Shown: positions 9,668 through 58,144, counted from the first letter of the stretch. The stretch: 64,000 nucleotides of DNA from Candidatus Enterousia sp. (GCA_045635825.1 JAZTWM010000006.1:12265-76264), one strand, 5' to 3'. The notes: a model not told the origin generated them from the letters alone. Program-made: numbers and translations.

Positions 9668-11206
9668 ATGAGCCACAAAACCAAACATTTTCATTTTCTT
9701 AAATTGCCCATTTTGATGGTTGGGGTGATAAGTGGATTTTCATACATAAATGTTGTATATGCCGCATGCACTTTTTATCCACATACGGCTTCAGGTTTGA
9801 AATCTGATATGTTAAGAGTACGAACGCTGAATGGTACTGTGGGACATTATAGATGTGGTGGTGGTAATTGTGTACAAGGTGATTGGGTTGTAGATGTAAT
9901 AGCGGGAAAGAGTTACATATGCACTAGTGATGGTACAAAATGGGATGGTGGGGCGATACCAAATTGTACTAGCAATCCCAACACAGAGAAATATATTCTA
10001 CAGTCCTCTGCAGACTCAAGAAAAACCTTGTTCTCTGGTAGGGAAAAATCTAGTAGTTCGGAGCATTTTACCACAAAGAGGTCTGATAATTGCTATGCGT
10101 ATGAATGCATAAATGGTACTGTGCCATCTGCTGATCGTACAAAATGTGTTTGTAAAAACGGTGAAAATAAAACATCTGGTCTTTGCATGGGAAAAGTACA
10201 CGCAACCTTTTGTGAACTAAAATGCATAAATGAAAATTGGCAAGTTACCAAGATAAAAACATGTGAACCACACTATACACCTAATACTAGTGCCACAGAA
10301 TGCATAGAAGCACAATCCACAAACCGTACTTCATCTGGCGGCAACACATCATCTACTGGCGTCACCCCAACACCATCTACAACTACCTCACCATATCAAT
10401 ATGACCACTTAATCGGCCAACAATGCCAAAATCCGGTCCGATTACCCGAGCATGCAACCAATGGATTCATCATCGAAAATCGACAGGCACTCCATGGCAT
10501 CGCATGCATGGTAACCGCATGTCAACAGCCAGACTGGATGGTCAACCCACAAGGCCGCGCCAATTGTATCCGTAATACCACCACAACAACACCAACCACA
10601 ACCACCACATCGACAGAAACGAATACCTCAGATGCAACAACACCATCAACCGCAATACCTATTGCAGACACAACAACAGAACAACCTGTGGTTGCAGAGG
10701 AAACGTCTGATGACGCAGCAGAGGCATCAGTGGCAACACCTGTTGTAACCGAACAAACCCCAGAACCATGTGAAGACACAAACCAAGGTATCCAATCAGG
10801 ACATATTGTAAATGGGATTTGTGTGCCGGAATCTTGTGTGACCCCAGGTTGGACATTGATAAATGGTAAATGTGTGCATGCCGATGGTATAGATTGTAAA
10901 GACACAATGTATATGGCAGATACTGCCACATATCAAAATGGCGTATGTACCGTTCACGAATGTTATGCAGGGTTTGAGGTAAAAGAAAACCAATGTGTTG
11001 AAATCTCTGGCCCATGCAAGAGTTTACCCGATAAAGCAACACGTGGTCATCGTAAATATGACAAAGACGCAGATTCTGTAAAATGTAACGTTGATGATTG
11101 CGTTGATGGATATGTTATTGCAGATGATAAAATGTCATGTCGTGAAGACTATGAAGCATTGGCGGAACAGGCACGTGAACGCGAACAATCCACCGGTAAT
11201 AAATGA
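9668..11206 (+). CDS. Secreted cysteine-rich protein with mucin-like Thr-rich linkers (TTTTPTTTTTSTETNTS); signal peptide MSHKTKHFHFLKLPILMVGVISGFSYINVVYA. Ends at an in-frame TGA that may be read through into 11222..11737.
   Basis: Signal peptide, >40 Cys in repeated CxC/NG contexts, low-complexity Thr/Pro tracts. Confidence 0.6.
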   Translation: MSHKTKHFHFLKLPILMVGVISGFSYINVVYAACTFYPHTASGLKSDMLRVRTLNGTVGHYRCGGGNCVQGDWVVDVIAGKSYICTSDGTKWDGGAIPNCTSNPNTEKYILQSSADSRKTLFSGREKSSSSEHFTTKRSDNCYAYECINGTVPSADRTKCVCKNGENKTSGLCMGKVHATFCELKCINENWQVTKIKTCEPHYTPNTSATECIEAQSTNRTSSGGNTSSTGVTPTPSTTTSPYQYDHLIGQQCQNPVRLPEHATNGFIIENRQALHGIACMVTACQQPDWMVNPQGRANCIRNTTTTTPTTTTTSTETNTSDATTPSTAIPIADTTTEQPVVAEETSDDAAEASVATPVVTEQTPEPCEDTNQGIQSGHIVNGICVPESCVTPGWTLINGKCVHADGIDCKDTMYMADTATYQNGVCTVHECYAGFEVKENQCVEISGPCKSLPDKATRGHRKYDKDADSVKCNVDDCVDGYVIADDKMSCREDYEALAEQAREREQSTGNK

Positions 11207-18698: not shown

Positions 18699-18775
18699 TG
18701 GTGGATGTGATTGGACTCGAACCAACGACCTCTTCGATGTGAACGAAGCGCTCTAACCAACTGAGCTACACATCC
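18699..18775 (-). tRNA. tRNA-Val (anticodon CAC), CCA encoded
   Basis: Cloverleaf folds by hand: GGATGTG acceptor, TAGCTCAGTTGGTTAGAGC D-arm, anticodon loop TTCACAT, GGTTCGAGTCC T-arm. Confidence 0.85.
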
Positions 18776-18840: not shown

Positions 18841-19926
18841 TTGTGTTGTAAAATGAAAGACATGATAAAGCGGCGTTTTATATATGTTATTTCTATTGTA
18901 TTGTTGTGTGGTGGGGCATTTGCCGCTGAATCATTGCTGAGGCCTGCAAGTTTTCCAGTTGTGTCAAAAGATTTCTCGTTTGAGCAACGTGTGGAAAATA
19001 TGGCAGAAGGTTATAAACCTTATGCGGGGATGAGTGCATATCAAATAATGGAATTTGAATCTATGGAAGATTATGCCCAGCGTGCGATAGAGGCAGAGTT
19101 AAGGGCAGCGGGTATTGAAGTTTGCGATGGGTGTGATGAAAACGGCAATCCGCCTGTCCAAGATGGTAGTACAGCGGTTGCGTTGCCACAGGTACCGGTA
19201 CAAACAACTGTGCAAACAAATATGCAGACACCGGTTCAAATAACTGCACAAACAAATGTGCCAAAAACAGAAACGTCAAAGCAGCCGTCTGTATCCGTCG
19301 GTGGGGTGCAGGGGTATTGTAGCCGTAAAAATCCTAATATTCCAGTTGGGCAAACGATACCGTTTGGGCTGCCTGTTAATACGGCGGATTTATCACCAAA
19401 TATATCTAGTCGTGCAAAAAGTATTGCGAGAAATACAGATAGGGGATTGTTTTGTTCGCCATATGGTTGTGGGCGTGGACGACCACATGAAGGTATTGAT
19501 ATTGGTTGTGATGCGGCCTTTTATCAAATGCCGATTTATGCAACTGCGGATGGGGTTGTTGATCATATTGTTTATGCTGGAAAAAATGCGTCTGCGGGTA
19601 ATTATATTAGAATAAATCATGGTAATGGGTGGATTTCGCAGTATATGCATTTGGATAAAATGTTTGTGTCCAAAGGGCAACGTGTAGAGGCAGGGTGTTT
19701 GATTGGTTTGATGGGACATACCGGCGGTAATCGGGATCAAAAAGTTCGTGGAATGAGTATTGATTTAACACATTTGCATTATGAAATAGTGTATTCGGGC
19801 AAGGCGTCTTATGTTCAGGCACCTAATGGTAAAAAAATACCGATTGTGCGTGGGGATAAAAAATTAGGCTATTGTGGCAGTTTTAAGAGCAAAATTTTGC
19901 CTAATGAGATTATGGTGTATAAATAA
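18841..19926 (+). CDS. Secreted M23-family metallopeptidase (LytM-like) carrying the N-terminal DFSFEQR..EGYKPYAG module
   Basis: Signal peptide; HEGIDIG..D and HLHYEI (HxxxD / HxH M23 zinc ligands). The true start may be the second or third Met. Confidence 0.7.
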   Translation: MCCKMKDMIKRRFIYVISIVLLCGGAFAAESLLRPASFPVVSKDFSFEQRVENMAEGYKPYAGMSAYQIMEFESMEDYAQRAIEAELRAAGIEVCDGCDENGNPPVQDGSTAVALPQVPVQTTVQTNMQTPVQITAQTNVPKTETSKQPSVSVGGVQGYCSRKNPNIPVGQTIPFGLPVNTADLSPNISSRAKSIARNTDRGLFCSPYGCGRGRPHEGIDIGCDAAFYQMPIYATADGVVDHIVYAGKNASAGNYIRINHGNGWISQYMHLDKMFVSKGQRVEAGCLIGLMGHTGGNRDQKVRGMSIDLTHLHYEIVYSGKASYVQAPNGKKIPIVRGDKKLGYCGSFKSKILPNEIMVYK

Positions 19927-19942
19927 AAGATTGAGATTTGTG

Positions 19943-20029
19943 TGGTGGGGATAGTGGGACTCGAACCCACACGGTCGCAATGACCAAAGGATTTTAAGTC
20001 CTCAGCGTCTACCATTCCGCCATATCCCC
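19943..20029 (-). tRNA. tRNA-Leu (anticodon TAA), long variable arm, CCA encoded
   Basis: GGGGATATGGCGGAATGGTAGACGC.. anticodon loop CTTAAAA, variable arm TGGTCATTGCGACCGTG, T-arm GGGTTCGAGTCCC. Confidence 0.8.
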
Positions 20030-20073
20030 GAAGACTTTTGCAACAATGCCACAACATGTGGCATTTGATTTTA

Positions 20074-20149
20074 TGGTGGAGCTGATGGGACTCAAACCCA
20101 CGACCTCTACGATGCGAACGTAGCGCTCTATCAACTGAGCTACAACCCC
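20074..20149 (-). tRNA. tRNA-Ala (anticodon CGC) with G3:U70, CCA encoded
   Basis: GGGGTTGTAGCTCAGTTGATAGAGC.. anticodon loop TTCGCAT; G3:U70 identity pair present. Confidence 0.8.
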
Positions 20150-20156
20150 AATTAAA

Positions 20157-20243
20157 TGGTGCGGATAAGAAGACTCGAACTTCCAAGGTATTGCTACCAC
20201 TAGTACCTGAAACTAGCGCGTCTACCAATTCCGCCATATCCGC
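20157..20243 (-). tRNA. tRNA-Leu (anticodon CAG), long variable arm, CCA encoded
   Basis: GCGGATATGGCGGAATTGGTAGACGC.. anticodon loop TTCAGGT, long variable arm, GTTCGAGTC T-arm. Confidence 0.8.
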
Positions 20244-22993: not shown

Positions 22994-24097
22994 TTAAAAC
23001 AGGTATTTGACTGTCAAACTGCCAATCCAACCATCACGTGCGCCGTCACGACGACCAAATGTACCTGTAAAATTAAAGTCTGCGACATTCTTTTCTAGTG
23101 ACAGGCTGTATTCTTTAAAGTTGCCTGTTTCCAGTGTTGATGTTGCGATGTTATTTACGGTTAAGTCGTTGTTAGATGTAGACATTATCGCGTATTTTGC
23201 ATTTATTGATCCAAACCATCCGTTTGCAATATGTTTGATAGCACGTATAGATGGTGCGAATTCAAATATGCTAAGTGCGTTGTTTTTTATTTCATCACCA
23301 TTGGCGGATTGATATTCTTCGCCCCTTATCCAAGTGTATGCCAAGTGTACGCCAGGCTGTATTGTAAATGTTTGATCCAATGTGAAATCGTATGTTGCGT
23401 TTATTGCACCGCCGGCCCAGAAATTAGAGTATTCGTCTGTGCCATCTGTTGTTGTTGCGGAATTGTTCAGTACGCCACCGTTGATGGTTGTGTACAGTCC
23501 CAGGTCGCCAAATACATTGCCGTTATAGATGCCAAAGAAGCCACCTTGTTCATCAATGTTGATGTGCTTGTTCTTTTGTTCACCGTTTATAAATCCTGTA
23601 TATAGTCCCCATTTAGATAGGCCACCAGCAAATTCGGATGTGCCGCCGGCGACGCCGAACATGAATATATCGGCGTCTGAATCTAATCTGTCAAAATTGT
23701 CAAACTTTGCATTGTCGCCCATATGTTGCCAGTTTGCCCACAGACTGTTTAATGTTGCGTCTGGGTTTACTGTGTCGCCACCACTGCGACCAGCTGTGCC
23801 GTCATCGTTGTATTCACCGTATAGTGGGGCACGACCATACATGGGGGCACGACCGTATGTGCTTGCAGGGTTTTCGTTTGCCTGGGCATTTATTGCCTGG
23901 GTTCTTAGTTTTTGGCCGCCCATTGTGCCACGCATAGAACCGGCAAATGATGAAAACATCGTTTGTGTTACAGAATGTTGTATTGCCGCGATATTGTGGG
24001 CAGATATTGTGTTGGCGTACATGTGTGCCGATGCATTTGCGTCGATTGTTCCCAATATGGCAAACAATGATATGTTGAATAATATGTTCTTTTTCAT
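22994..24097 (-). CDS. Outer-membrane beta-barrel protein, autotransporter-beta-domain-like, C-terminal ..VKYLF
   Basis: Signal peptide MKKNILFNISLFAILGTIDANA; alternating amphipathic beta strands; aromatic C-terminal residue (F) typical of OMPs; WANWQHMG..DADIFMFGVAGG resembles an autotransporter translocator. Confidence 0.55.
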   Translation of the reverse strand: MKKNILFNISLFAILGTIDANASAHMYANTISAHNIAAIQHSVTQTMFSSFAGSMRGTMGGQKLRTQAINAQANENPASTYGRAPMYGRAPLYGEYNDDGTAGRSGGDTVNPDATLNSLWANWQHMGDNAKFDNFDRLDSDADIFMFGVAGGTSEFAGGLSKWGLYTGFINGEQKNKHINIDEQGGFFGIYNGNVFGDLGLYTTINGGVLNNSATTTDGTDEYSNFWAGGAINATYDFTLDQTFTIQPGVHLAYTWIRGEEYQSANGDEIKNNALSIFEFAPSIRAIKHIANGWFGSINAKYAIMSTSNNDLTVNNIATSTLETGNFKEYSLSLEKNVADFNFTGTFGRRDGARDGWIGSLTVKYLF

Positions 24098-24242
24098 AAT
24101 TCTACTCTCTCTTGTTGTCATTATGATGTGTTTTATTATAGCATAAAAATCCTATTATTAAAAATGATAAATATAATGGGCGTTACGTTCAAAAATGTTT
24201 TTTATTGTAGTTTTGATAAAATCTGTTATGATATTTATCATT

Positions 24243-25448: not shown

Positions 25449-25735
25449 GCTTGTTGTTGGTGGGTTATGTATAGTTTGCTGGGAAAGGTGGGATGGTTCT
25501 TTGTGGGCTTGGGCGTTAAATGTAATTCGTGTTTGTGTCGTATAGTTTGGGCGTGATCTTGTGTGTTGTAATCGGTAAGAGGTGATGGCGATTTTGATGT
25601 GGTGGTGTGTCGTTTGGGGAGTTTTTTTATGGTGGTGTAATAATTTATATGTGATTGTGCGTTTCGAAAAAAAAGTCCGGAAAACAGCGGGGTGTAGCGA
25701 TTGCTAAAAGGCGTATAATGTATATTATGTATAGT

Positions 25736-26015
25736 TTTGTGTGCTGTGGGCCACTAAACAATACCTAATATGTGTGCTTGTGTTTGTTGTGTTTTGGTGT
25801 GCTGTGGCCCACTAAACGGATACATAATATGTGTGCTGGTGTTTGTTGTGCTTTGGTGTGCTGTAGCCCACTAAACAATACATAATATGTGTGCTGGTGT
25901 TTGTTGTGCTTTAGTGTGTGCTGTGGCCCACTAAACGTATACATGATATGCGTGTGCTTGTGTTTGTTGTGCTGTGGTCCATTAAACGTATACATAATAT
26001 GTGTGTTTGTTGTCT
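25736..26015. repeat. About five tandem copies of a ~59-bp direct repeat (gtgtgctgtggcccactaaac[a/g]atacataatatgtgtgctggtgtttgttgtgctttg) inside a 1 kb ORF-free, C-depleted spacer
   Basis: Seen directly; unit starts near 25741, 25801, 25860, 25920, 25970, the last copy shortened. No unique spacers, so not CRISPR. Confidence 0.7.
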
Positions 26016-27999: not shown

Positions 28000-29142
28000 T
28001 CAACGTGTTAATGGGTCTGTTGTTGGTTCGTGGCAACCGTTTTCACGCGTTAGTTTGACACGATTCATCCAGCCTTTTAAGAACTTTTTATTATTTCCAC
28101 GCTTGGATACCTGGACAAAATATTGTTGCATGTCGTCAAGATAATCGTTGTGCAAATCACCGTTATAGGTTTCAGCGGCACGTGCAACTTCATCGTCAAT
28201 TTTACTGCGTTCTGGTATTTTTAATACACGACAAAAATGTTTGATTCCTGTGACAGGGCCGGATGCCCAGCCAAAGGTGAAAACATCGCCACGAACATAG
28301 TCTGGTAATTTTTCAATGCCATGTTGACGATAGTATTTGCGATTAGCAATATCTTCGGCACCGGCACGTGTTAGATTGCGAACGTTAACCTCTGGATTGT
28401 TGTTTTGTGATATGCCATAGCATGTGTAACCGCCAGAATCGTCTTTGTCATGACCACAATCGCCTTCGGCACGAAATGTTGTAATCATAATTTTTTCAAA
28501 CGCAGGGTCTGATTGTGCATATTTACCGCTGGTTAAGATTTTGTTCAAGAAATGCTGACTGCGTTGTGGTGGTGTACATGGGCCATTGCGGACAGTTTTA
28601 TTTGCGATTACAGGCCGTCCAAAGGTATCGGTACCCACCGCACGTCCATTTGTGGTTGCTGTGGGTTGTGTTTGTGCCGTTGTGGGATATTGCGACTGTG
28701 TGGTTTGTTGCGTTTGCTGTGCCGTTGTTTGTTGTTCTGGGGTGGTTTGACGGTCGCCGATAGCCACGACTTCTTCGAATGCACCGGGTTTTTGCACGCA
28801 GTATTCATCGTCTAATGGATATTTGTCGCAGTATTGTTCGTGTGTCATTTTATGATAGTCTTGTTTTCGTTCCAGTTCTGCACGACTAATCATTCGGTCC
28901 AAATATGCTTCTTCGGATTCAACGTCAATTGTGTGAAATGCACTGGCATTGGCATAAGGGGCATACCCAGTTGATGCGTTGCTCGTCCGTTTGTTAAAAG
29001 AATAATCCATAGATGTTTTTGGTGCATTTTCTACACGTAATAATGATTTGGACAATCCGTATGCGGATGTGCATACGCCAGTCATGATGAATAATAATAA
29101 AAAGTGGCGTGTAAAATTATTCATTGGTTGTCCAAGGTTCAT
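28000..29142 (-). CDS. Secreted GH108-family muramidase-like protein with a peptidoglycan-binding (PG_binding_3-like) domain, Q/T-rich linker and the N-terminal DYSFNKR..TGYAPYAN module
   Basis: EGDCGHDKDDSGGYTCYGIS resembles the GH108 catalytic N-terminus (EGGYvnDpxDpGGxTkyGIt); signal peptide; TQQTTQSQYPTTAQTQP linker. Confidence 0.55.
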   Translation of the reverse strand: MNLGQPMNNFTRHFLLLFIMTGVCTSAYGLSKSLLRVENAPKTSMDYSFNKRTSNASTGYAPYANASAFHTIDVESEEAYLDRMISRAELERKQDYHKMTHEQYCDKYPLDDEYCVQKPGAFEEVVAIGDRQTTPEQQTTAQQTQQTTQSQYPTTAQTQPTATTNGRAVGTDTFGRPVIANKTVRNGPCTPPQRSQHFLNKILTSGKYAQSDPAFEKIMITTFRAEGDCGHDKDDSGGYTCYGISQNNNPEVNVRNLTRAGAEDIANRKYYRQHGIEKLPDYVRGDVFTFGWASGPVTGIKHFCRVLKIPERSKIDDEVARAAETYNGDLHNDYLDDMQQYFVQVSKRGNNKKFLKGWMNRVKLTRENGCHEPTTDPLTR

Positions 29143-30832
29143 CGTTCATTATTAGATAATATAGTGCAGGATTGTCAGAACCGGGGTTTCTTAGAATTGG
29201 GCGAACAACATATATGTCTACGTTGCAAGGGGTGTTGCCACCCTGCTCTTCTTTCAGGTCTTCGTGAAACTTTGATGCAAAATCCATTGCCTGCAAGTAT
29301 GCAGCATCATCGTCATTATCGCTGATTGAATCACCCATCCACATCAGCCACATACCATGGTTTACAACGTTTTCTTGACCTTCTAGGTCGTCGGCAGATA
29401 GTAATAATAATGGTGCAAATTCAACGCCACTGGTAAAGTCGCCTGTTTCAGTTTCGGTCCAGTCGTACATGCCACCAATAAACTTGATTGCACCGTATGC
29501 CAGACCACCGGCGGCCTCTAATTTTCCAAGCATAGCGGCATTTTTCATAGTGGAATGGAATAACCAATCTTTGGCTTGGTTGGCAAAACCGCTGGAACGG
29601 CCCATGCGTGCGGCCTTGGTAATAAGTTTGTTGCCTGTCATGGCGGATTTTGTTGCCCGGGCGGCACGTGCAACGATGTTGCCACGTTGTGCCAATTTTA
29701 ATGAACGCAATCCACGACGATAGGCATTTAATTCAGAAAATGTTTTTGTTGCGTCGCGATATTTTTTTACGTCGTTGGTTGCGTCTAGTGTTTTTACAGT
29801 GTCTTTGGCTTTGTCCAAATCCTTGGTCAAATCTGCAATTTTTGCGGCGTCTTTGGTCTTGTCTAGTTTATTGATTTTATTTGTTAGGTCTGCAACGTCA
29901 CGTGTGGCACGTGTCCATTTTATAACGTCATCAGATTTGCTGAGTGTTTTTATAGTACCGGTCAGACCTTTTAATGCACGTGATGCACGTGCGGCCTTGG
30001 TTGCCCCGGTTATGACAATGCCACCACCCATAGTTACAACGGTTATTACGATATCCAGTGCAATTTCCAGATATGTTATCCATTGCAGGTTTACATCACC
30101 TGCAATGTAATAGTCGTTAGAGTCGTCTTCCATATTGACGGTTCTTTCACTCATTACTTTGTTTATGATTAAATCGTCATCTGCCAATGCGGAACGTGCA
30201 GTGCATTTACCGCCATTGTCGTCTGCATTTGGATACAGTTCGTCAATATGGTCACGAATGTATTCAATTGCCAGGGTGTTATTTTTATCAGGCCCCACAA
30301 ATTCGTCCAATGCCCCATGTTCGACAATCATGATTGCGTACCATGCGGGTTCTGTATTTGTCCAAATCGCGGCATCATCTGGATCGCCCAGGCGTGGGTT
30401 TGGATTGTCGGTTGGCAGTCCGCGTTTTTCAGACAGCATTAATCGCTGTTTTAATAATTTTGGCTGTGTTTCATAGTTTACGATAATTTCACGTCCATTT
30501 GGAAATGTGTACATGATGGGCATGAACTTTATTGTTTCGCCTTCGGGAGTGTTAGCGATTTCAGGGCATGCCAGTACCGGACCTAGAACATCTTTTTGTG
30601 CAAATGTTTGATAAATCCATTGCTGAATTACGGTTTCGTGTTCCGTTTCGGCCGCAGGATCGGCGGTGCGTGCCAATGCGTCTGCAAATACTTTGGTTGC
30701 ACATGCCGTATCGTCGGGGCCACGTGTTGGGATTGTTGTGTCTATCAGGCGTGTGTTGGCCCCGTATACGGTGTGTGGTATAACCGCAGGGAACAATAAT
30801 AGGCAAAAGAATATAAAAATGTTTTTTAGCAT
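29117..30832 (-). CDS. Secreted hypothetical protein (571 aa) with a central Gly-rich hydrophobic segment and a K/D/T-rich coiled-coil-like repeat region
   Basis: Signal peptide MLKNIFIFFCLLLFPAVIPHTVYG; VITVVTMGGGIVITGATKAA; repeated KxLxKxxD motifs; start overlaps the stop of the upstream gene. Confidence 0.5.
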   Translation of the reverse strand: MLKNIFIFFCLLLFPAVIPHTVYGANTRLIDTTIPTRGPDDTACATKVFADALARTADPAAETEHETVIQQWIYQTFAQKDVLGPVLACPEIANTPEGETIKFMPIMYTFPNGREIIVNYETQPKLLKQRLMLSEKRGLPTDNPNPRLGDPDDAAIWTNTEPAWYAIMIVEHGALDEFVGPDKNNTLAIEYIRDHIDELYPNADDNGGKCTARSALADDDLIINKVMSERTVNMEDDSNDYYIAGDVNLQWITYLEIALDIVITVVTMGGGIVITGATKAARASRALKGLTGTIKTLSKSDDVIKWTRATRDVADLTNKINKLDKTKDAAKIADLTKDLDKAKDTVKTLDATNDVKKYRDATKTFSELNAYRRGLRSLKLAQRGNIVARAARATKSAMTGNKLITKAARMGRSSGFANQAKDWLFHSTMKNAAMLGKLEAAGGLAYGAIKFIGGMYDWTETETGDFTSGVEFAPLLLLSADDLEGQENVVNHGMWLMWMGDSISDNDDDAAYLQAMDFASKFHEDLKEEQGGNTPCNVDIYVVRPILRNPGSDNPALYYLIMNDEPWTTNE

Positions 30833-30899
30833 TATTATTCCCTGTAGTGTTTTTATTTGGTTGTGTATTGTGCCGCCTGTGCCCCCATAACGGTATCTG

Positions 30900-32732
30900 C
30901 TAGTTTACCTTTTTATTGTTGTTTGGGTTACTGTCGGTTTTGTCGTTAGGATCCGATGTTTTAAACAGTTTTTCGGTCCATTTTTTGATGTCGAATTGTT
31001 TAGAGTTTTTTGCAGCATCGTCTGCGGCATCTATGTCTTTTGCGGATTTGCCAACAGCGGCACCGGCGCGTTCTGCGAACTTTTTTACAGTACCAAGTTT
31101 TTTGCTGGCCTCTTCCATATTTTGTGCCCCTTTTACGGCGTCTAGTACTTCGGTATCTTCGTTGTTACCTTTGCCACCAGTGCCACATTCTTCGTCCATT
31201 TCCGCCAGTTGTGCTTCGATTTTTGCGATTGCATATTCATACATATCGGGTCCCAGATCAGGTTCCAGTGGTGCAGGTTCCGGCTGTGGTGTTGTTTGTT
31301 GTGCGGTTGGTGCGGGTGTTGTTTCAGGGATTATTTCCGCACAATAATCGGCCATTAACTGATAGCCATCGATGCAACCCCATTCGATACATTTTTTTTC
31401 TTCGTTCAATCCAAATATGTATATGGGCAGGTTTTTTTCTTCTTCGTTTGGACCTTTCCCATCACAATATTTTGGGGTGCATTTTTTTGTTTTTGAATCA
31501 TAATTAAATGATTCACCGCAGTCCCATTTCCAACATACTTTTGATGTATCTGGGACGTATCGAACGCTATCACCTAGGCCATTTGGTGGTGCAGATGTGC
31601 CAGAACACCAGCGTGTTGTACAACTTTCTGACCATGCGTCATCACTGACTAGGTCTTTAAAGAATCCAAGGATCCCGCCACTAGATTTTGAACGGCCACC
31701 CACTTGGCATTGGCGAACCATGGCCATTGCACCACCACCTTTTTTCTGACAGAACATATAATCGCCAATGCCACGTTTTACGTCGCCGGTGGTTGTATTG
31801 CAACACGTTTGTTTGTTTGTAACAGGGTCTGTCAAACAGTCGGTTTCCGAGAACATTTGCCATCCAACAGTGGCCGCACCAACAACTGCACCTGCACCAA
31901 GAGCGATCCATCCAGCTGGGCCAGATAGTGCTAAAACGGATGCAACCCCCATGCCGACCATTGCACCGCCTGCGGTTGACATTAGAAGGTCTTTGCCTGT
32001 GCGGGCACCTTCGCCCATATTAGCATCCCACCACATTTTAACACCGCCTACTACTGATAGTACGCCTAGACCTTTGCTTACAACTTTGCCCGCTGTACCT
32101 TTTAATATGTTTAATTTGCTATTTGTCTTGATTGGGTCTGGTTTTGGTGGTGGCATGTTGTTAAAGCCTTTGCCAGATACGAATTTTCCGTTCATATTTT
32201 TATAATTGACTATGCCACTTTTATGGACTTCACGATAGTATTGTTTGCCGTCTGTGTGGGTGAAAAGTTCGCGTGTAAAAACATTACCTTTGCTGCTGGT
32301 AATTGTGCCTGTTGGCAGTGGTTTTGGCGCCTTTGCCGCGGCGGTTGTTGTCTTGGCGGCTGTGCTGCTTGTCGAAGTTGATGCTGGTGTGGATGGTGAC
32401 GCAGTGGGGGTTGCAGCTGGTGCACCGTTTTTAGAGAAGTAAATAGATCCATTTTTTTTAGTAACGCTTATACCCTGTTTTTTTAGATTTCTTTGTAAGG
32501 CATCGTATTCTCCTGGGGTAAGTTGGTCAGTGGTATAGGCGGGCATACCCCCACCTTTTGTTTGCCAGTCGCTTAATATGCTGTCAAATGACTGGCCACC
32601 AAAACCCAATTTTGCTTTTGCTGCATCGAAGACGGGGGTGGCGGCATAAGATAATGATACTGTGCATATTAATAATGAAAATGCAACAAGGAATGTTTTT
32701 ATTTTTTTTAGAAAAAAAGTTTTTATAGACAT
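30900..32732 (-). CDS. Secreted hypothetical protein (~610 aa) with a Thr/Ala/Ser/Pro-rich linker, a glycine-zipper membrane segment and a Cys-rich C-terminal half
   Basis: Signal peptide; AATPTASPSTPASTSTSSTAAKTTTAAAKAPKP; GAMVGMGVASVLALSGPAGWIALGAGAVVGAATVG glycine zipper; CxxC/WxC-rich region. Confidence 0.5.
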   Translation of the reverse strand: MSIKTFFLKKIKTFLVAFSLLICTVSLSYAATPVFDAAKAKLGFGGQSFDSILSDWQTKGGGMPAYTTDQLTPGEYDALQRNLKKQGISVTKKNGSIYFSKNGAPAATPTASPSTPASTSTSSTAAKTTTAAAKAPKPLPTGTITSSKGNVFTRELFTHTDGKQYYREVHKSGIVNYKNMNGKFVSGKGFNNMPPPKPDPIKTNSKLNILKGTAGKVVSKGLGVLSVVGGVKMWWDANMGEGARTGKDLLMSTAGGAMVGMGVASVLALSGPAGWIALGAGAVVGAATVGWQMFSETDCLTDPVTNKQTCCNTTTGDVKRGIGDYMFCQKKGGGAMAMVRQCQVGGRSKSSGGILGFFKDLVSDDAWSESCTTRWCSGTSAPPNGLGDSVRYVPDTSKVCWKWDCGESFNYDSKTKKCTPKYCDGKGPNEEEKNLPIYIFGLNEEKKCIEWGCIDGYQLMADYCAEIIPETTPAPTAQQTTPQPEPAPLEPDLGPDMYEYAIAKIEAQLAEMDEECGTGGKGNNEDTEVLDAVKGAQNMEEASKKLGTVKKFAERAGAAVGKSAKDIDAADDAAKNSKQFDIKKWTEKLFKTSDPNDKTDSNPNNNKKVN

Positions 32733-32734
32733 AA

Positions 32735-33628
32735 TCAATAACTTCCTGTGGTTTGGCATTGTTCAATTGGTGTGCCGGCGGCACGACATGCCTTTAATTT
32801 CGCCAGATCTTCACGTAATGTTTGGGTGGTTGTACCGTATTTGGCTTCGCACCATTCACGACGTTTGGCAGCAATGCGAATGCGACGGTCCAGATACGCC
32901 TCTTTGGATTCGATTGTGATGGTTTTAAATGCACTGGTGCCGGCGTATGGTTTATATCCTTCGGTGGCGTTGGCCTTGCGTTCTTCAAAGGAAAAGTCAG
33001 CCGCCACTTTTGGCATTTCATCTGTCGCAGTTGGTAATTTGTTTGCACCCGATTGTTCGCGCAGGGCCTCTAACTCTGCCCGGCGGGCGGCCATGTCTGC
33101 CTTCCAATTATCTTGTTGCTTGGGTTGGGTGGACGGAAGTGTTGATACAATCGCCTGGGTTGGTGTGTTTGTCTTTATGGATGTGTCTGGGAATGCAATA
33201 CGGGCATTTTTATCAAACCCAGTATTTTGTTTTACATAATTGTCAAATGCACCATCTAAGTATCCGGCACAAGATGTGGCATAGTTTGCCCCAGGCATTT
33301 GTGTCAATTGCATCATTAATGCAGGACGTATATCCTTTAATTTTGTGTCACGACAATTGTTACGCATTCCACATTGCTGGGCAATCAATTGGGCGGCAAT
33401 TTGGTTGCAGTCGCCAGATTTAGCGTCTGGACCATCGACGTATACCGGTGTTGGCATACGCTGATTATATGGCGAGTTTGGGTTCCAATATGGATTTGAT
33501 GAATAACTTTGTACGTTTTGAATGTTTCCATAATTGGAAAATGCAGATGGTGATGCATTGCATAAACCAGTATATGTGATAACACATATCATAAATAAAT
33601 GAAGTATATACTTGTGCTTAATTCTCAT
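32735..33628 (-). CDS. Secreted hypothetical protein carrying the DFSFEERKANATEGYKPYAG module near its C-terminus
   Basis: Signal peptide MRIKHKYILHLFMICVITYTGLCNA; the shared module with 18841 and 28000 proteins; Cys pairs. Confidence 0.5.
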   Translation of the reverse strand: MRIKHKYILHLFMICVITYTGLCNASPSAFSNYGNIQNVQSYSSNPYWNPNSPYNQRMPTPVYVDGPDAKSGDCNQIAAQLIAQQCGMRNNCRDTKLKDIRPALMMQLTQMPGANYATSCAGYLDGAFDNYVKQNTGFDKNARIAFPDTSIKTNTPTQAIVSTLPSTQPKQQDNWKADMAARRAELEALREQSGANKLPTATDEMPKVAADFSFEERKANATEGYKPYAGTSAFKTITIESKEAYLDRRIRIAAKRREWCEAKYGTTTQTLREDLAKLKACRAAGTPIEQCQTTGSY

Positions 33629-33649: not shown

Positions 33650-34117
33650 TTATAGCAAAAACAGACCTGTCAGGAAAGATAAAAATCCCCCAATTAGAAA
33701 AAATGGTGCAAATGGTATATATTTTTGTTGATTAAATCGTGCCCATATTGCCCCAATCAGGCATGCGAATATTAGTGCCAGTCCCAATCCATTTGTCCCC
33801 AGCCATAATCCCCCAACACCAATTAACTTTATATCGCCCATACCAATTGGTGGGTATGGAATGTTTTTATTTTTGTGCAGTTTGTCAAATAATATGCCAA
33901 TAATTGTTGCCATAATGTATCCGAATGTTGCACCAATGACAGCATTTGATATGTCGGTTGGAAAACTGTAAAAAGTGGTTAATATCAGCCCAATCAGCAT
34001 AAGTGGAAACAGGTATGCGTCTGGGATTATACGACGACGCAGGTCGGCCCTGGATATCATTATGGCCAGCCAAATTGCAGTGGCAATTAATAGGCTAAAA
34101 AATATATTAAAAATCAT
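33650..34117 (-). CDS. Prepilin peptidase-like (A24 family, CpaA/TadV-type) small membrane protein
   Basis: 155 aa, 4-5 TM helices, Asp in the ADLRRRIIPD context and a second Asp in a later loop, as in CpaA-type peptidases. Confidence 0.5.
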   Translation of the reverse strand: MIFNIFFSLLIATAIWLAIMISRADLRRRIIPDAYLFPLMLIGLILTTFYSFPTDISNAVIGATFGYIMATIIGILFDKLHKNKNIPYPPIGMGDIKLIGVGGLWLGTNGLGLALIFACLIGAIWARFNQQKYIPFAPFFLIGGFLSFLTGLFLL

Positions 34118-56992: not shown

Positions 56993-58144
56993 ATGTCGAA
57001 ACAGAATAAAAACAACATGGGTACGACCAAGCGTTCCACTGATGATATGATAAATGATGCCATTGCACAGCAGAATGATTGGTTGGAAAATCGTCGTGAA
57101 TATACACGTGGTTTTTTAAAGTCTTTGAATTTGTTTGCACGCCCATCTAACAAGAAAAATGTTGAAAATGTTTCTGTGGAACAGACCAAGGTTGAACAGG
57201 CACGCCGTCGTCGTACAGGATTGGGTGCGTATTGGTTTCCGGTGTTATGTGCAGTATTGGTTATTATGATTGCGATTTGGGTTATGTTTATTCGCGGTAC
57301 AACCCAGCCACGTGTTGTTGTCGTGCCAGCGGTTCCAGAACCAGTCGTTCAACGTGTCAAGGCAATTACAGTGCCAGAGTTTGATATTGTACGTATAGAA
57401 AAAGATGGAGATATTGTTATCGCAGGTCGTTGGTTGCCACATCAAAATATTTCTATCTTGGTAAATGGCAAGGTTGTTGCGACAGAACGTACCGACTATC
57501 GTGGTGAATTTGTTTATTCGCCAACAAATCAGTGGAAGCCTGGTAACTATACAATTGCATTGTTGGGTACAGATCCAGAAGTAAAATCTTCGAACAAAGT
57601 GTTTGTGTATATTTCCGAAGAAGGTCCTAAAAAATCAATGTCTTTGCTGATGACAAAAGAAGGCAGTACATTATTGCAGGGGCCGGCATATTTGTCAGAT
57701 GGTGATTTGCATGTATCAAAAATTGATTATTTGGATACAGGTCGTGTTGTTGTGACAGGGGATGCGTTGCCACGTTTGCGTGTAACTTTGTCATTGGATG
57801 GAAAATATTTGGGATATGGTCGTGTATCTGACCACAAACATTTTGGTCTGGGGGCAGATGTTGGTGAATTGGCATCAGGCAAGGAATATGAATTGATTGT
57901 ACGTTTGCATGATGGTGATGGTCGTACAGTTGGTGCAATTAAGCATAATTTTGTGATGCCAGAAATGACAGGTGATGATGATACATATTATACTGTACGA
58001 CGTGGTGATTGTTTGTGGGTGATTGCACGTAATTTTATGCGTCGTGGTGTCTTGTTCAGCATTATCGCAGAACGTAATAACATTGAAAATCCAGATTTAA
58101 TTTATCCAAAACAGTTATTGCAGATTCCGGTTGCTGGAAAATAG
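56993..58144 (+). CDS. LysM-domain membrane protein (N-terminal cytoplasmic segment, one TM, periplasmic region, C-terminal LysM)
   Basis: C-terminal YYTVRRGDCLWVIARNF...IENPDLIYPKQLLQIP is a canonical LysM; TM YWFPVLCAVLVIMIAIWVMFI. Confidence 0.65.
   Translation: MSKQNKNNMGTTKRSTDDMINDAIAQQNDWLENRREYTRGFLKSLNLFARPSNKKNVENVSVEQTKVEQARRRRTGLGAYWFPVLCAVLVIMIAIWVMFIRGTTQPRVVVVPAVPEPVVQRVKAITVPEFDIVRIEKDGDIVIAGRWLPHQNISILVNGKVVATERTDYRGEFVYSPTNQWKPGNYTIALLGTDPEVKSSNKVFVYISEEGPKKSMSLLMTKEGSTLLQGPAYLSDGDLHVSKIDYLDTGRVVVTGDALPRLRVTLSLDGKYLGYGRVSDHKHFGLGADVGELASGKEYELIVRLHDGDGRTVGAIKHNFVMPEMTGDDDTYYTVRRGDCLWVIARNFMRRGVLFSIIAERNNIENPDLIYPKQLLQIPVAGK

Follow-up and report, generated by a model that had tools for sequence, protein, structure and literature searches.

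In the 64,000-nucleotide stretch of DNA from Candidatus Enterousia sp. analysed here (the window, with positions counted from its first letter), a module of approximately 45-60 residues is common to three proteins: an M23 endopeptidase, a GH108 muramidase and a protein of 297 amino acids (aa) that is called P297 in this work. All three are exported according to their signal peptides, which were judged by eye only (basic n-region, hydrophobic core, AxA-like site). The module is a real domain family, nameless in Pfam, NCBIfam and PHROGs and with no relative in the PDB searches that were run. Concerning its role, architecture, conservation and genomic context suggest that it is probably a tethering module of some kind. 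As for what it would hold on to, peptidoglycan is tentatively proposed as the ligand, with chances that are judged to be somewhat below even.

When the full proteins were compared by BLASTP, each pair gave one significant segment (M23 and GH108, E = 7e-14; M23 and P297, E = 2e-12; GH108 and P297, E = 4e-14), and the three copies of the module align internally without gaps, with 20 invariant columns. A previous reading of this DNA from the sequence alone (the sequence-only reading) had reported three open reading frames (ORFs) with a shared stretch, and both the ORF calls and the pairwise BLASTP values (2e-12 to 7e-14) bear it out. The significance of the alignment, for which that reading had called for proper statistics, holds in the pairwise BLASTP as well as in a full HMMER scan. 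The hidden Markov model (HMM) of the three copies that it had also suggested recovered only those three when run on the window in six frames, and a fourth copy is absent (next match, E = 0.99). On the other hand, the interval given for the module (28000-33628) was accurate only for the GH108 and P297 copies, since the M23 copy is some 9 kb away from this interval. At the DNA level, the module cores share 54-61% nucleotide identity, and their third-codon identity at conserved residues is ~50%, near random. Hence, the similarity is old and has been kept at the protein level, which points to old paralogues maintained by selection on the protein. A recent gene conversion or duplication among the three copies was rejected on the same nucleotide and third-codon identities.

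The consensus of 152 copies is L..[TA].FP.T.ADLSF.ERM.N.AAGYEPYKD.SAY..I.IESEE.Y..R. It comprises a conserved core of ~37 residues (FPxTxxDxSFxxRxxNxxxGYxPYxxxxAY), usually followed by an IxIESEExYxxR extension. At least 89% of the copies conserve positions F8, P9, T11, D14, F17, R20, G27, Y28 and P30, together with the aromatics at 31 and 37, and the second half of the module is less constrained and substituted in some members. A composition of aromatic plus Asp/Asn/Arg/Gly/Pro residues is frequent in glycan-binding sites, and the conserved aromatic, Asp, Asn and Arg positions of the module are compatible with glycan binding. The module is also acidic, with a median net charge of -3 and 86% of the copies negative (the M23 copy has a charge of -5 and an isoelectric point, pI, of 4.4), and the catalytic domains are basic (pI 9.0-9.5). 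In a neighbour-joining tree of the copies, built on an alignment too short for robustness, most of those from GH108 and M23 proteins cluster by protein family.

Two independent AlphaFold2 runs gave the same secondary structure for the module, an extended FPxT segment followed by a helix-loop-helix. The model of M23 aa 28-100 (80-sequence alignment; mean predicted local distance difference test score, pLDDT, of 83) presents the extended segment, a helix at aa 47-61, a loop and a helix at aa 75-89. In the full-length P297 model (95-sequence alignment; mean pLDDT 76) the module appears as helix 214-224, loop and helix 242-264, with pLDDT values of 82-97. Because the two runs agree and the module reaches these values, the predictions indicate a folded unit and not a disordered linker.

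Regarding known domains, a permissive Pfam search (E <= 10) with 18 module copies gave only scattered chance matches, and none of these 18 sequences matched LysM, SPOR, PG_binding_1/2/3 or SH3b even at this threshold. When the full proteins were used, Pfam found no known peptidoglycan-binding domain in their N-terminal parts, and NCBIfam and PHROGs covered the catalytic domains only, not the module. P297 has no Pfam, NCBIfam or PHROG match at all. A sequence profile search of the PDB with the module returned nothing credible, and Foldseek comparisons of the full P297 model and of an isolated module model with the PDB gave nothing below E = 3. The sequence-only reading had not recognised the module as a named domain, and this is confirmed by the lack of any Pfam, NCBIfam or PHROG model and of any PDB relative by sequence or fold; the well-known domain that it had envisaged as an alternative did not turn up in Pfam, NCBIfam, PHROGs, the PDB or Foldseek. 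A phage origin of the module was also considered and was rejected, as no relative turned up when viral contigs were scanned with the module profile. Separately, the window encodes a 383-aa protein (56993-58144, +) with a LysM domain of the classical type at its C-terminus; a standard peptidoglycan-binding domain is thus in use in this organism as well.

The distribution of the module was determined with a full HMMER scan, which was needed because a word-indexed protein search with the module gave only short fragments. A profile of nine module sequences found 287 carriers at E <= 1e-3, and 104 at E <= 1e-10, among 1.84 billion cluster representatives. Furthermore, a pattern scan of one genome per species located the module in 13 loci, all of them in metagenome-assembled genomes that come from gut samples of animals and humans and carry the label Candidatus Enterousia or uncultured Alpha-/Proteobacteria, and one of them in a circular genome of 958 kb. 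All the carriers that were traced belong to gut Alphaproteobacteria of the Candidatus Enterousia / Rs-D84 lineage. Enterousia (order Rs-D84) are rod-shaped gut bacteria with genomes below 1 Mb, without respiration, the tricarboxylic acid cycle or standard transporters, and they have been proposed to be obligate symbionts or parasites that take metabolites from other cells (PMC12306168).

Architectures were read from the best 150 of the 287 carriers by comparing these with the proteins of the window, and three architectures were found. One consists of signal peptide, module, linker and M23 domain (e.g. P0023, P0039, P0067, P0088 and P0127) and another has the GH108 domain in place of M23 (P0059, P0085, P0098, P0105 and P0134). 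The third, which is the majority, is that of the P297 family: the P297 N-domain (~aa 25-190), the module (~aa 190-255) and, behind it, a tail that is short and contains Cys, as in the window, or else an extension of 90-480 aa. Among these 150 carriers, the free-standing enzymes with the module are of only two kinds, both peptidoglycan hydrolases. The proposal of a discrete and portable module on two peptidoglycan hydrolases of unrelated folds is therefore supported. Its position, as first described, is right for M23 and GH108, where the module follows the signal peptide; the location near the C-terminus is true only for the P297 copy of the window. Across the P297 family the module is found in the middle of the protein, behind a conserved N-domain of ~190 aa; what follows it is a short tail or an extension that varies and can reach ~480 aa.

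These extensions are highly diverse. Those of at least 90 aa occur in 80 representatives and form 30 unrelated BLAST clusters at one conserved locus. They are mostly cysteine-rich (up to 42 Cys), and several present Gly/Ala-rich hydrophobic segments. Pfam recognised almost nothing in the 80 extensions apart from Flg_new (Listeria-Bacteroides repeats) in eight, CPL1-like in three and GH108 in one. The P297 family thus shows the conserved N-terminal region and the unrelated, swappable C-termini that are expected of polymorphic toxins. Nevertheless, its C-termini are not recognisable toxins with immunity genes downstream; what is found downstream is the conserved genes of P619, P571 and P105, three neighbours that are described below.

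The limits of the module are marked by natural variants. A search with the P297 N-domain retrieved complete proteins of 193-197 aa, encoded on long contigs, that end just ahead of the module (P0163, P0168, P0181 and P0228; L021, L023, L025 and L026, at 10001-10594), and no module is present anywhere in the 20-kb neighbourhoods of these N-domain-only genes. In addition, the 542-aa protein P0047 (locus L014, 3036-4664) joins the P297 N-domain and a single module to the post-module segment and catalytic domain of GH108. In L014, GcrA is followed by the divergently transcribed A24 peptidase, the fused gene and P105, and this locus lacks the genes of P619 and P571. P0047 is consistent with the product expected from recombination between two module copies. 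The truncations, the chimera and the starts close to the signal peptide show that the module is a discrete unit with sharp natural boundaries.

Concerning the two hydrolases, the M23 ORF scores 84.1 bits against PF01551 (cut-off, 28.7) and is thus a member of this family. It conserves the motifs HxxxD (HEGID, ~aa 216) and HxH (HLH, ~aa 311), which are kept in 6/6 module-bearing M23 sequences (the window copy and five representatives from other genomes). Its nearest solved structure is ShyA (6UE4), which matches aa 212-323 only. The GH108 ORF belongs to Pfam Glyco_hydro_108 (PF05838, aa 222-295, E = 6.7e-14, 52.6 bits versus a cut-off of 21.2), and the nearest solved structure is Brucella SagA (7DNP, 182 aa), matching aa 214-367 with E = 4.9e-4. 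Glu226, which we take to be the catalytic Glu of the N-terminal EG(G) motif, forms with Gly227 an EG motif that is invariant in 7/7 module-bearing GH108 sequences. Since the catalytic motifs are kept in all these M23 and GH108 sequences, both proteins look like functional enzymes. In both of them the module begins a few residues past the predicted signal-peptide cleavage site and is separated from the catalytic domain by 60-130 residues, largely a low-complexity linker rich in Q, T and P. Anchoring of the hydrolases as lipoproteins was considered and discarded, as no proper lipobox was seen by eye and orthologues do not have the Cys.

A module, a linker and an enzyme, in this order, is the usual layout of a targeting or binding domain on a catalytic domain. 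A tethering module is favoured because the hydrolases look functional, the linkers are flexible, the only free-standing enzymes with the module among the best 150 carriers are wall hydrolases, and the module is optional on P297, its non-enzymatic carrier, which looks like a structural periplasmic protein and lacks the module in some lineages. The same pattern of wall hydrolases and optional presence on a structural protein is found for LysM, SPOR and PG_binding_1, and optional peptidoglycan-binding extensions occur on other envelope machines. Under this proposal, the module, restricted to one lineage, would fold autonomously and would hold the attached cargo at one common site of the cell envelope, outside the cytoplasm; the cargo would be either one of the two active enzymes (the M23 DD-endopeptidase-like one or the GH108 muramidase) or, in the P297 family, the C-terminal part that varies. 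If the module is a new peptidoglycan-binding domain, it may concentrate the two hydrolases on their substrate through the flexible linker, and may also fix P297, which belongs to a conserved envelope gene cluster, on the sacculus.

In fact, P297 and GH108 belong to one conserved gene cluster, a point that was missed by the sequence-only reading (Table 1). All the P297-family genes that were traced are divergent from gcrA and are located ~20-70 nucleotides (nt) downstream of an A24 prepilin-type peptidase gene. In all the loci examined, the P297 orthologues occupy this same locus and the adjacency of A24 and P297 is kept. The order of the cluster, A24, P297, (P619 or P571 paralogue), P571, [GH108], P105, [M23], P887, recurs in L001-L013 and L021-L026, with protein identities of 40-79%, and in L021-L026 it is kept although no module is present. 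The cluster lacks GH108 in 3/3 independent module-less locus types that were read far enough downstream (L021/22, L023/24 and L026) and also in most module-bearing loci, so that a test of whether P297 lineages without the module also lack module-bearing hydrolases has no power. P297, P571, P619, P105 and P887 have no Pfam, NCBIfam or PDB relative, and PHROGs, run on P297, P105 and P571 only, gave no match.

Table 1. Positions of the module copies, their carrier genes and the neighbouring genes in the window.
Feature	Position	Strand	Description
M23 metallo-endopeptidase gene, 361 aa	18841-19926	+	Signal peptide, module, Q/T/P-rich linker, M23 domain
Module copy 1	18952-19089	+	Core = M23 aa 38-83; extended module ~18931-19110
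M23 catalytic domain	19483-19806	+	Pfam Peptidase_M23, aa 215-322, E = 7.9e-24; PHROG and PDB matches confined here
P887	20272-22935	+	Large Cys-rich exported protein; adjoins M23 here and in L001, in-cluster elsewhere
P105	27617-27934	-	105 aa, exported, 57-79% identity across loci; mature part with 6 Cys, net charge +13, pI 10
GH108 muramidase gene, 380 aa	28000-29142	-	Signal peptide, module, Cys pair, T/Q/P-rich linker, GH108 domain
GH108 catalytic region	28030-28521	-	aa 208-371, PHROG endolysin phrog_315, E = 1.4e-28
Module copy 2	28888-29025	-	Core = GH108 aa 40-85
P571	29117-30832	-	Conserved protein, 41-61% identity across loci; two hydrophobic segments around a Lys-rich region
P619	30900-32759	-	Exported; Gly/Ala-rich hydrophobic segments and Cys-rich region; start overlaps the P297 stop by 25 nt
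P297 gene, 297 aa	32735-33628	-	Signal peptide, N-domain, disordered linker, helix, module, short Cys-containing tail
Module copy 3	32879-33016	-	Core = P297 aa 205-250
P297 N-domain, aa 26-145	33194-33553	-	Conserved aromatic/Asn/Pro-rich segment, then three-helix unit with four invariant Cys
A24 (prepilin-type) peptidase gene	33650-34117	-	21 nt upstream of P297; Pfam Peptidase_A24, E = 3.1e-15

In the P297 model, the three helices of the N-domain (71-87, 97-110 and 116-135) have pLDDT values of ~95. The middle Lys-rich region of P571 has a net charge of +21, and its N- and C-terminal domains are acidic (-19 and -16), a pattern suggestive of an inner-membrane protein whose two terminal domains lie in the periplasm and whose large loop lies in the cytoplasm. 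P105 is the best-conserved protein of the cluster, its gene always comes directly after GH108, or after P571 where GH108 is absent, and a role as partner or regulator of the hydrolases is conceivable. The start of GH108 overlaps the P571 stop by 26 nt, and this overlap and the similar one between P297 and P619 suggest that each of these pairs is co-transcribed. Moreover, P571 paralogues (L005, P0019 and P0113) and P619-like regions (P0073, P0084 and P0119) are found fused behind the P297 N-domain and module. By eye, the N-termini of P297, P619, P571, GH108 and P105 resemble ordinary Sec signal peptides and do not present the leader of type IV pilins or pseudopilins (short and basic, with a Gly end and a hydrophobic helix). 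Family scans of the window proteins recognised no secretion-system, pilus or type IV secretion genes. The conserved Asp motifs of the A24 peptidase are visible by eye.

The M23 gene is adjacent to P105 and P887 in L001 and is found elsewhere in other genomes (L017 and L018). Compared with the contiguous GH108-P105-M23-P887 order of L001, M23 and P887 are inverted in the window and displaced by ~5 kb. A tRNA-Val gene lies upstream of M23 (18699-18775), and tRNA-Leu, tRNA-Ala and tRNA-Leu genes lie downstream (19943-20243, -); these tRNA genes may mark the breakpoint of the rearrangement. Next to P887, a 375-aa exported protein (22994-24121, -) has a sub-threshold match to the Autotransporter beta-domain (E = 2.8e-4), and it was not found in the related loci.

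The remaining genes of the window are ordinary alphaproteobacterial housekeeping genes (including GcrA, RodZ, UvrA, trigger factor, ribosomal proteins and aminoacyl-tRNA synthetases). A tandem unit of 58-59 bp, with ~4 repeats and 86-88% matches, is present at 25734-25978, in a gap of ~1 kb past mscL without annotated genes. The GC skew is ~+0.2 to +0.35 over the genes of the + strand and near zero in the blocks of the - strand (28-34 kb and 38-46 kb), and thus it tracks the coding strand.

Several observations weigh against peptidoglycan as the ligand of the tethering module. Neither its sequence nor its predicted fold was found to resemble a known peptidoglycan-binding domain, and the GH108 ORF itself has a weak match to PG_binding_3 (E = 0.006). 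Its acidic character suits a basic protein such as P105 (+13) at least as well. Furthermore, its restriction to one lineage and the presence of GH108 and P297 in a lineage-specific cluster fit a co-evolved protein partner, and a peptidoglycan tether leaves the highly variable Cys-rich extensions behind the module unexplained. It is possible, although doubtful, that the module docks onto a protein, in which case the cargo would be plugged into a complex encoded by the cluster (P571, P619, P105 and P887) or into other module copies, and the muramidase and the endopeptidase would be recruited where this complex passes or remodels the wall, as described for the lytic enzymes of secretion systems and flagella. 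GH108 is inside the cluster, with its start overlapping the P571 stop, P297 overlaps P619, and the conserved order in L001-L013 and L021-L026 also favours docking. The fusions of the P297 N-domain and module to P571-like and P619-like proteins suggest physical association, the acidic module would face a strongly basic P105 that is always behind GH108, module and cluster are both confined to this one lineage, and Brucella SagA, the nearest GH108 relative with a solved structure, has been described as an autolysin associated with type IV secretion (PMC8334348). However, M23 genes with the module are located away from the cluster in L017 and L018, and the cluster survives module-free in L021-L026, so that the core function of the cluster does not depend on the module. 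A pure docking role would also be partly redundant where the module is covalently fused to the P297 N-domain. A bolder proposal, which we consider unlikely, is that the module is the common coupling element of a previously unrecognised envelope apparatus specific to Rs-D84/Enterousia (A24-P297-P619-P571-P105-P887), with which these partner-dependent bacteria of reduced genome would attach to other cells and breach them, and that it loads the muramidase and the endopeptidase beside a fast-diversifying, Cys-rich P297 tip that recognises the target.

The diversity of the P297 C-termini could also be read as that of polymorphic effectors, with the N-domain in charge of trafficking, the module as a boundary similar to a pre-toxin domain, and the C-termini as swappable effectors or adhesins, including wall hydrolases and Gly-zipper membrane segments, that a partner-dependent bacterium directs at partner or prey cells. 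The 80 representatives with extensions of at least 90 aa, in 30 unrelated BLAST clusters at a single conserved locus, would agree with it, as would the extension with GH108, the several with Gly/Ala-rich hydrophobic segments and the joint of the chimera, which falls within the module. The proposal of Rs-D84 as obligate symbionts or parasites of other cells (PMC12306168) points in the same direction. Nonetheless, it is improbable: a recognisable toxin-type domain is found in only 1/80 extensions, most of them being Cys-rich and surface or structural in appearance, nothing resembling a pattern of immunity genes was observed, the supposed trafficking domain does not accompany the module in M23 and GH108, and the loci that were read contain a single copy each and no arrays of orphan C-terminal cassettes. 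The presence of the module on otherwise unrelated exported proteins has led us to consider a sorting or export signal as well, which would be recognised after Sec by an apparatus that takes proteins through the outer membrane or places them on it, comparable to the C-terminal domain of the type IX secretion system. The adjoining A24-type peptidase gene hints at an apparatus of the pilus or pseudopilus type, and many extensions look surface-exposed (Cys-rich, with Listeria-Bacteroides repeats in 8/80). This is quite improbable too, given that just two enzyme types as carriers would be unusual for a general tag, that the position of the module varies between the mature N-terminus and internal sites, and that neither secretion-system genes in the window nor, by eye, prepilin-type leaders on the cluster proteins were recognised. 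Finally, the sequence-only reading had offered an inhibitory pro-domain among three functions (the others were targeting and partner binding), and this is the least likely of them: that the acidic module folds onto the basic catalytic domain as an inhibitor or chaperone, keeping the hydrolase latent until it is removed or displaced, is highly improbable. The opposite charges (M23 copy, -5 and pI 4.4; catalytic domains, pI 9.0-9.5) would allow it, and ShyA is the best PDB match of the M23 domain; the M23 enzymes LytM, LasA and ShyA are under the control of their N-terminal regions. Nevertheless, an enzyme domain is lacking in the large majority of carriers, which means that the module is not exclusive to enzymes, and one sequence would need to inhibit two unrelated active sites. 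In addition, the long flexible linker stands between module and enzyme, and conservation peaks at positions common to the three families and not at family-specific ones.

Regarding the relevance of these findings, Enterousia / Rs-D84 are common uncultured gut bacteria, and almost nothing is known of their interaction with their surroundings. The new domain family, with at least 287 cluster representatives, links two wall hydrolases that appear active from their conserved motifs to a cluster of exported and membrane proteins without relatives. If the module binds peptidoglycan, it would be a new fold among wall-targeting domains, and if it docks onto the proteins of the cluster, it would be a pointer to an envelope machine not known so far. 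Metagenomic data often contain new domains specific to one lineage, but this module is set apart by its unusually clear boundaries and by its tie to hydrolases and an envelope locus. The natural truncations and chimeras offer ready-made domain boundaries for constructs, and the small size of the domain makes it an experimental handle.

Among known systems, the XVIPCD of Xanthomonas type IV secretion effectors and the pre-toxin domains of polymorphic toxins are shared recognition or junction domains. In general outline, the module is like them in being one short domain on many unrelated cargos, wall hydrolases included, and in the recombination at the domain. Unlike them, its carriers have Sec signal peptides and it is N-terminal or internal instead of C-terminal. 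Moreover, few of the cargos are toxin-like, and neither immunity genes nor a delivery system were identified, which differs from polymorphic effectors. As for the enzymes, M23 DD-endopeptidases of the ShyA/MepM type, which have N-terminal regulatory domains, match the M23 domain best in NCBIfam and the PDB and share with its carrier a multi-domain organisation with non-catalytic N-terminal parts. However, the NCBIfam scores fall far short of the equivalog cut-offs, there is no relationship in the N-terminal 200 residues, and the N-terminal module of M23 is also found on a glycosidase and on non-enzymes. SagA of Brucella abortus, whose inhibitor is PhiA, is an autolysin of the GH108 type with a link to the VirB type IV secretion system (PMC8334348). 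The GH108 protein resembles SagA, which is thought to open the wall for an envelope machine, in being an alphaproteobacterial muramidase with a small putative partner protein encoded nearby. On the other hand, nothing in SagA matches the N-terminal module and linker of GH108, P105 has no detected similarity to any family in Pfam or NCBIfam, and genes for type IV secretion were not recognised in the window.

The closest parallels in kind are LysM (PF01476), SPOR, PG_binding_1 (PF01471) and SH3b, which are also short domains present on hydrolases of unrelated folds and on non-enzymatic envelope proteins, joined to the catalytic domain by a flexible linker and open to gain or loss. Unlike them, the module, which matches none of them in sequence, is confined to one order of gut Alphaproteobacteria. 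LysM adopts a beta-alpha-alpha-beta fold, SPOR a ribonucleoprotein-like sheet and PG_binding_1 a three-helix bundle; the helix-loop-helix predicted for the module would differ from LysM and SPOR in having no beta elements, and Foldseek finds no neighbour for it in the PDB. In kind, the module thus resembles the modular targeting domains of wall hydrolases.

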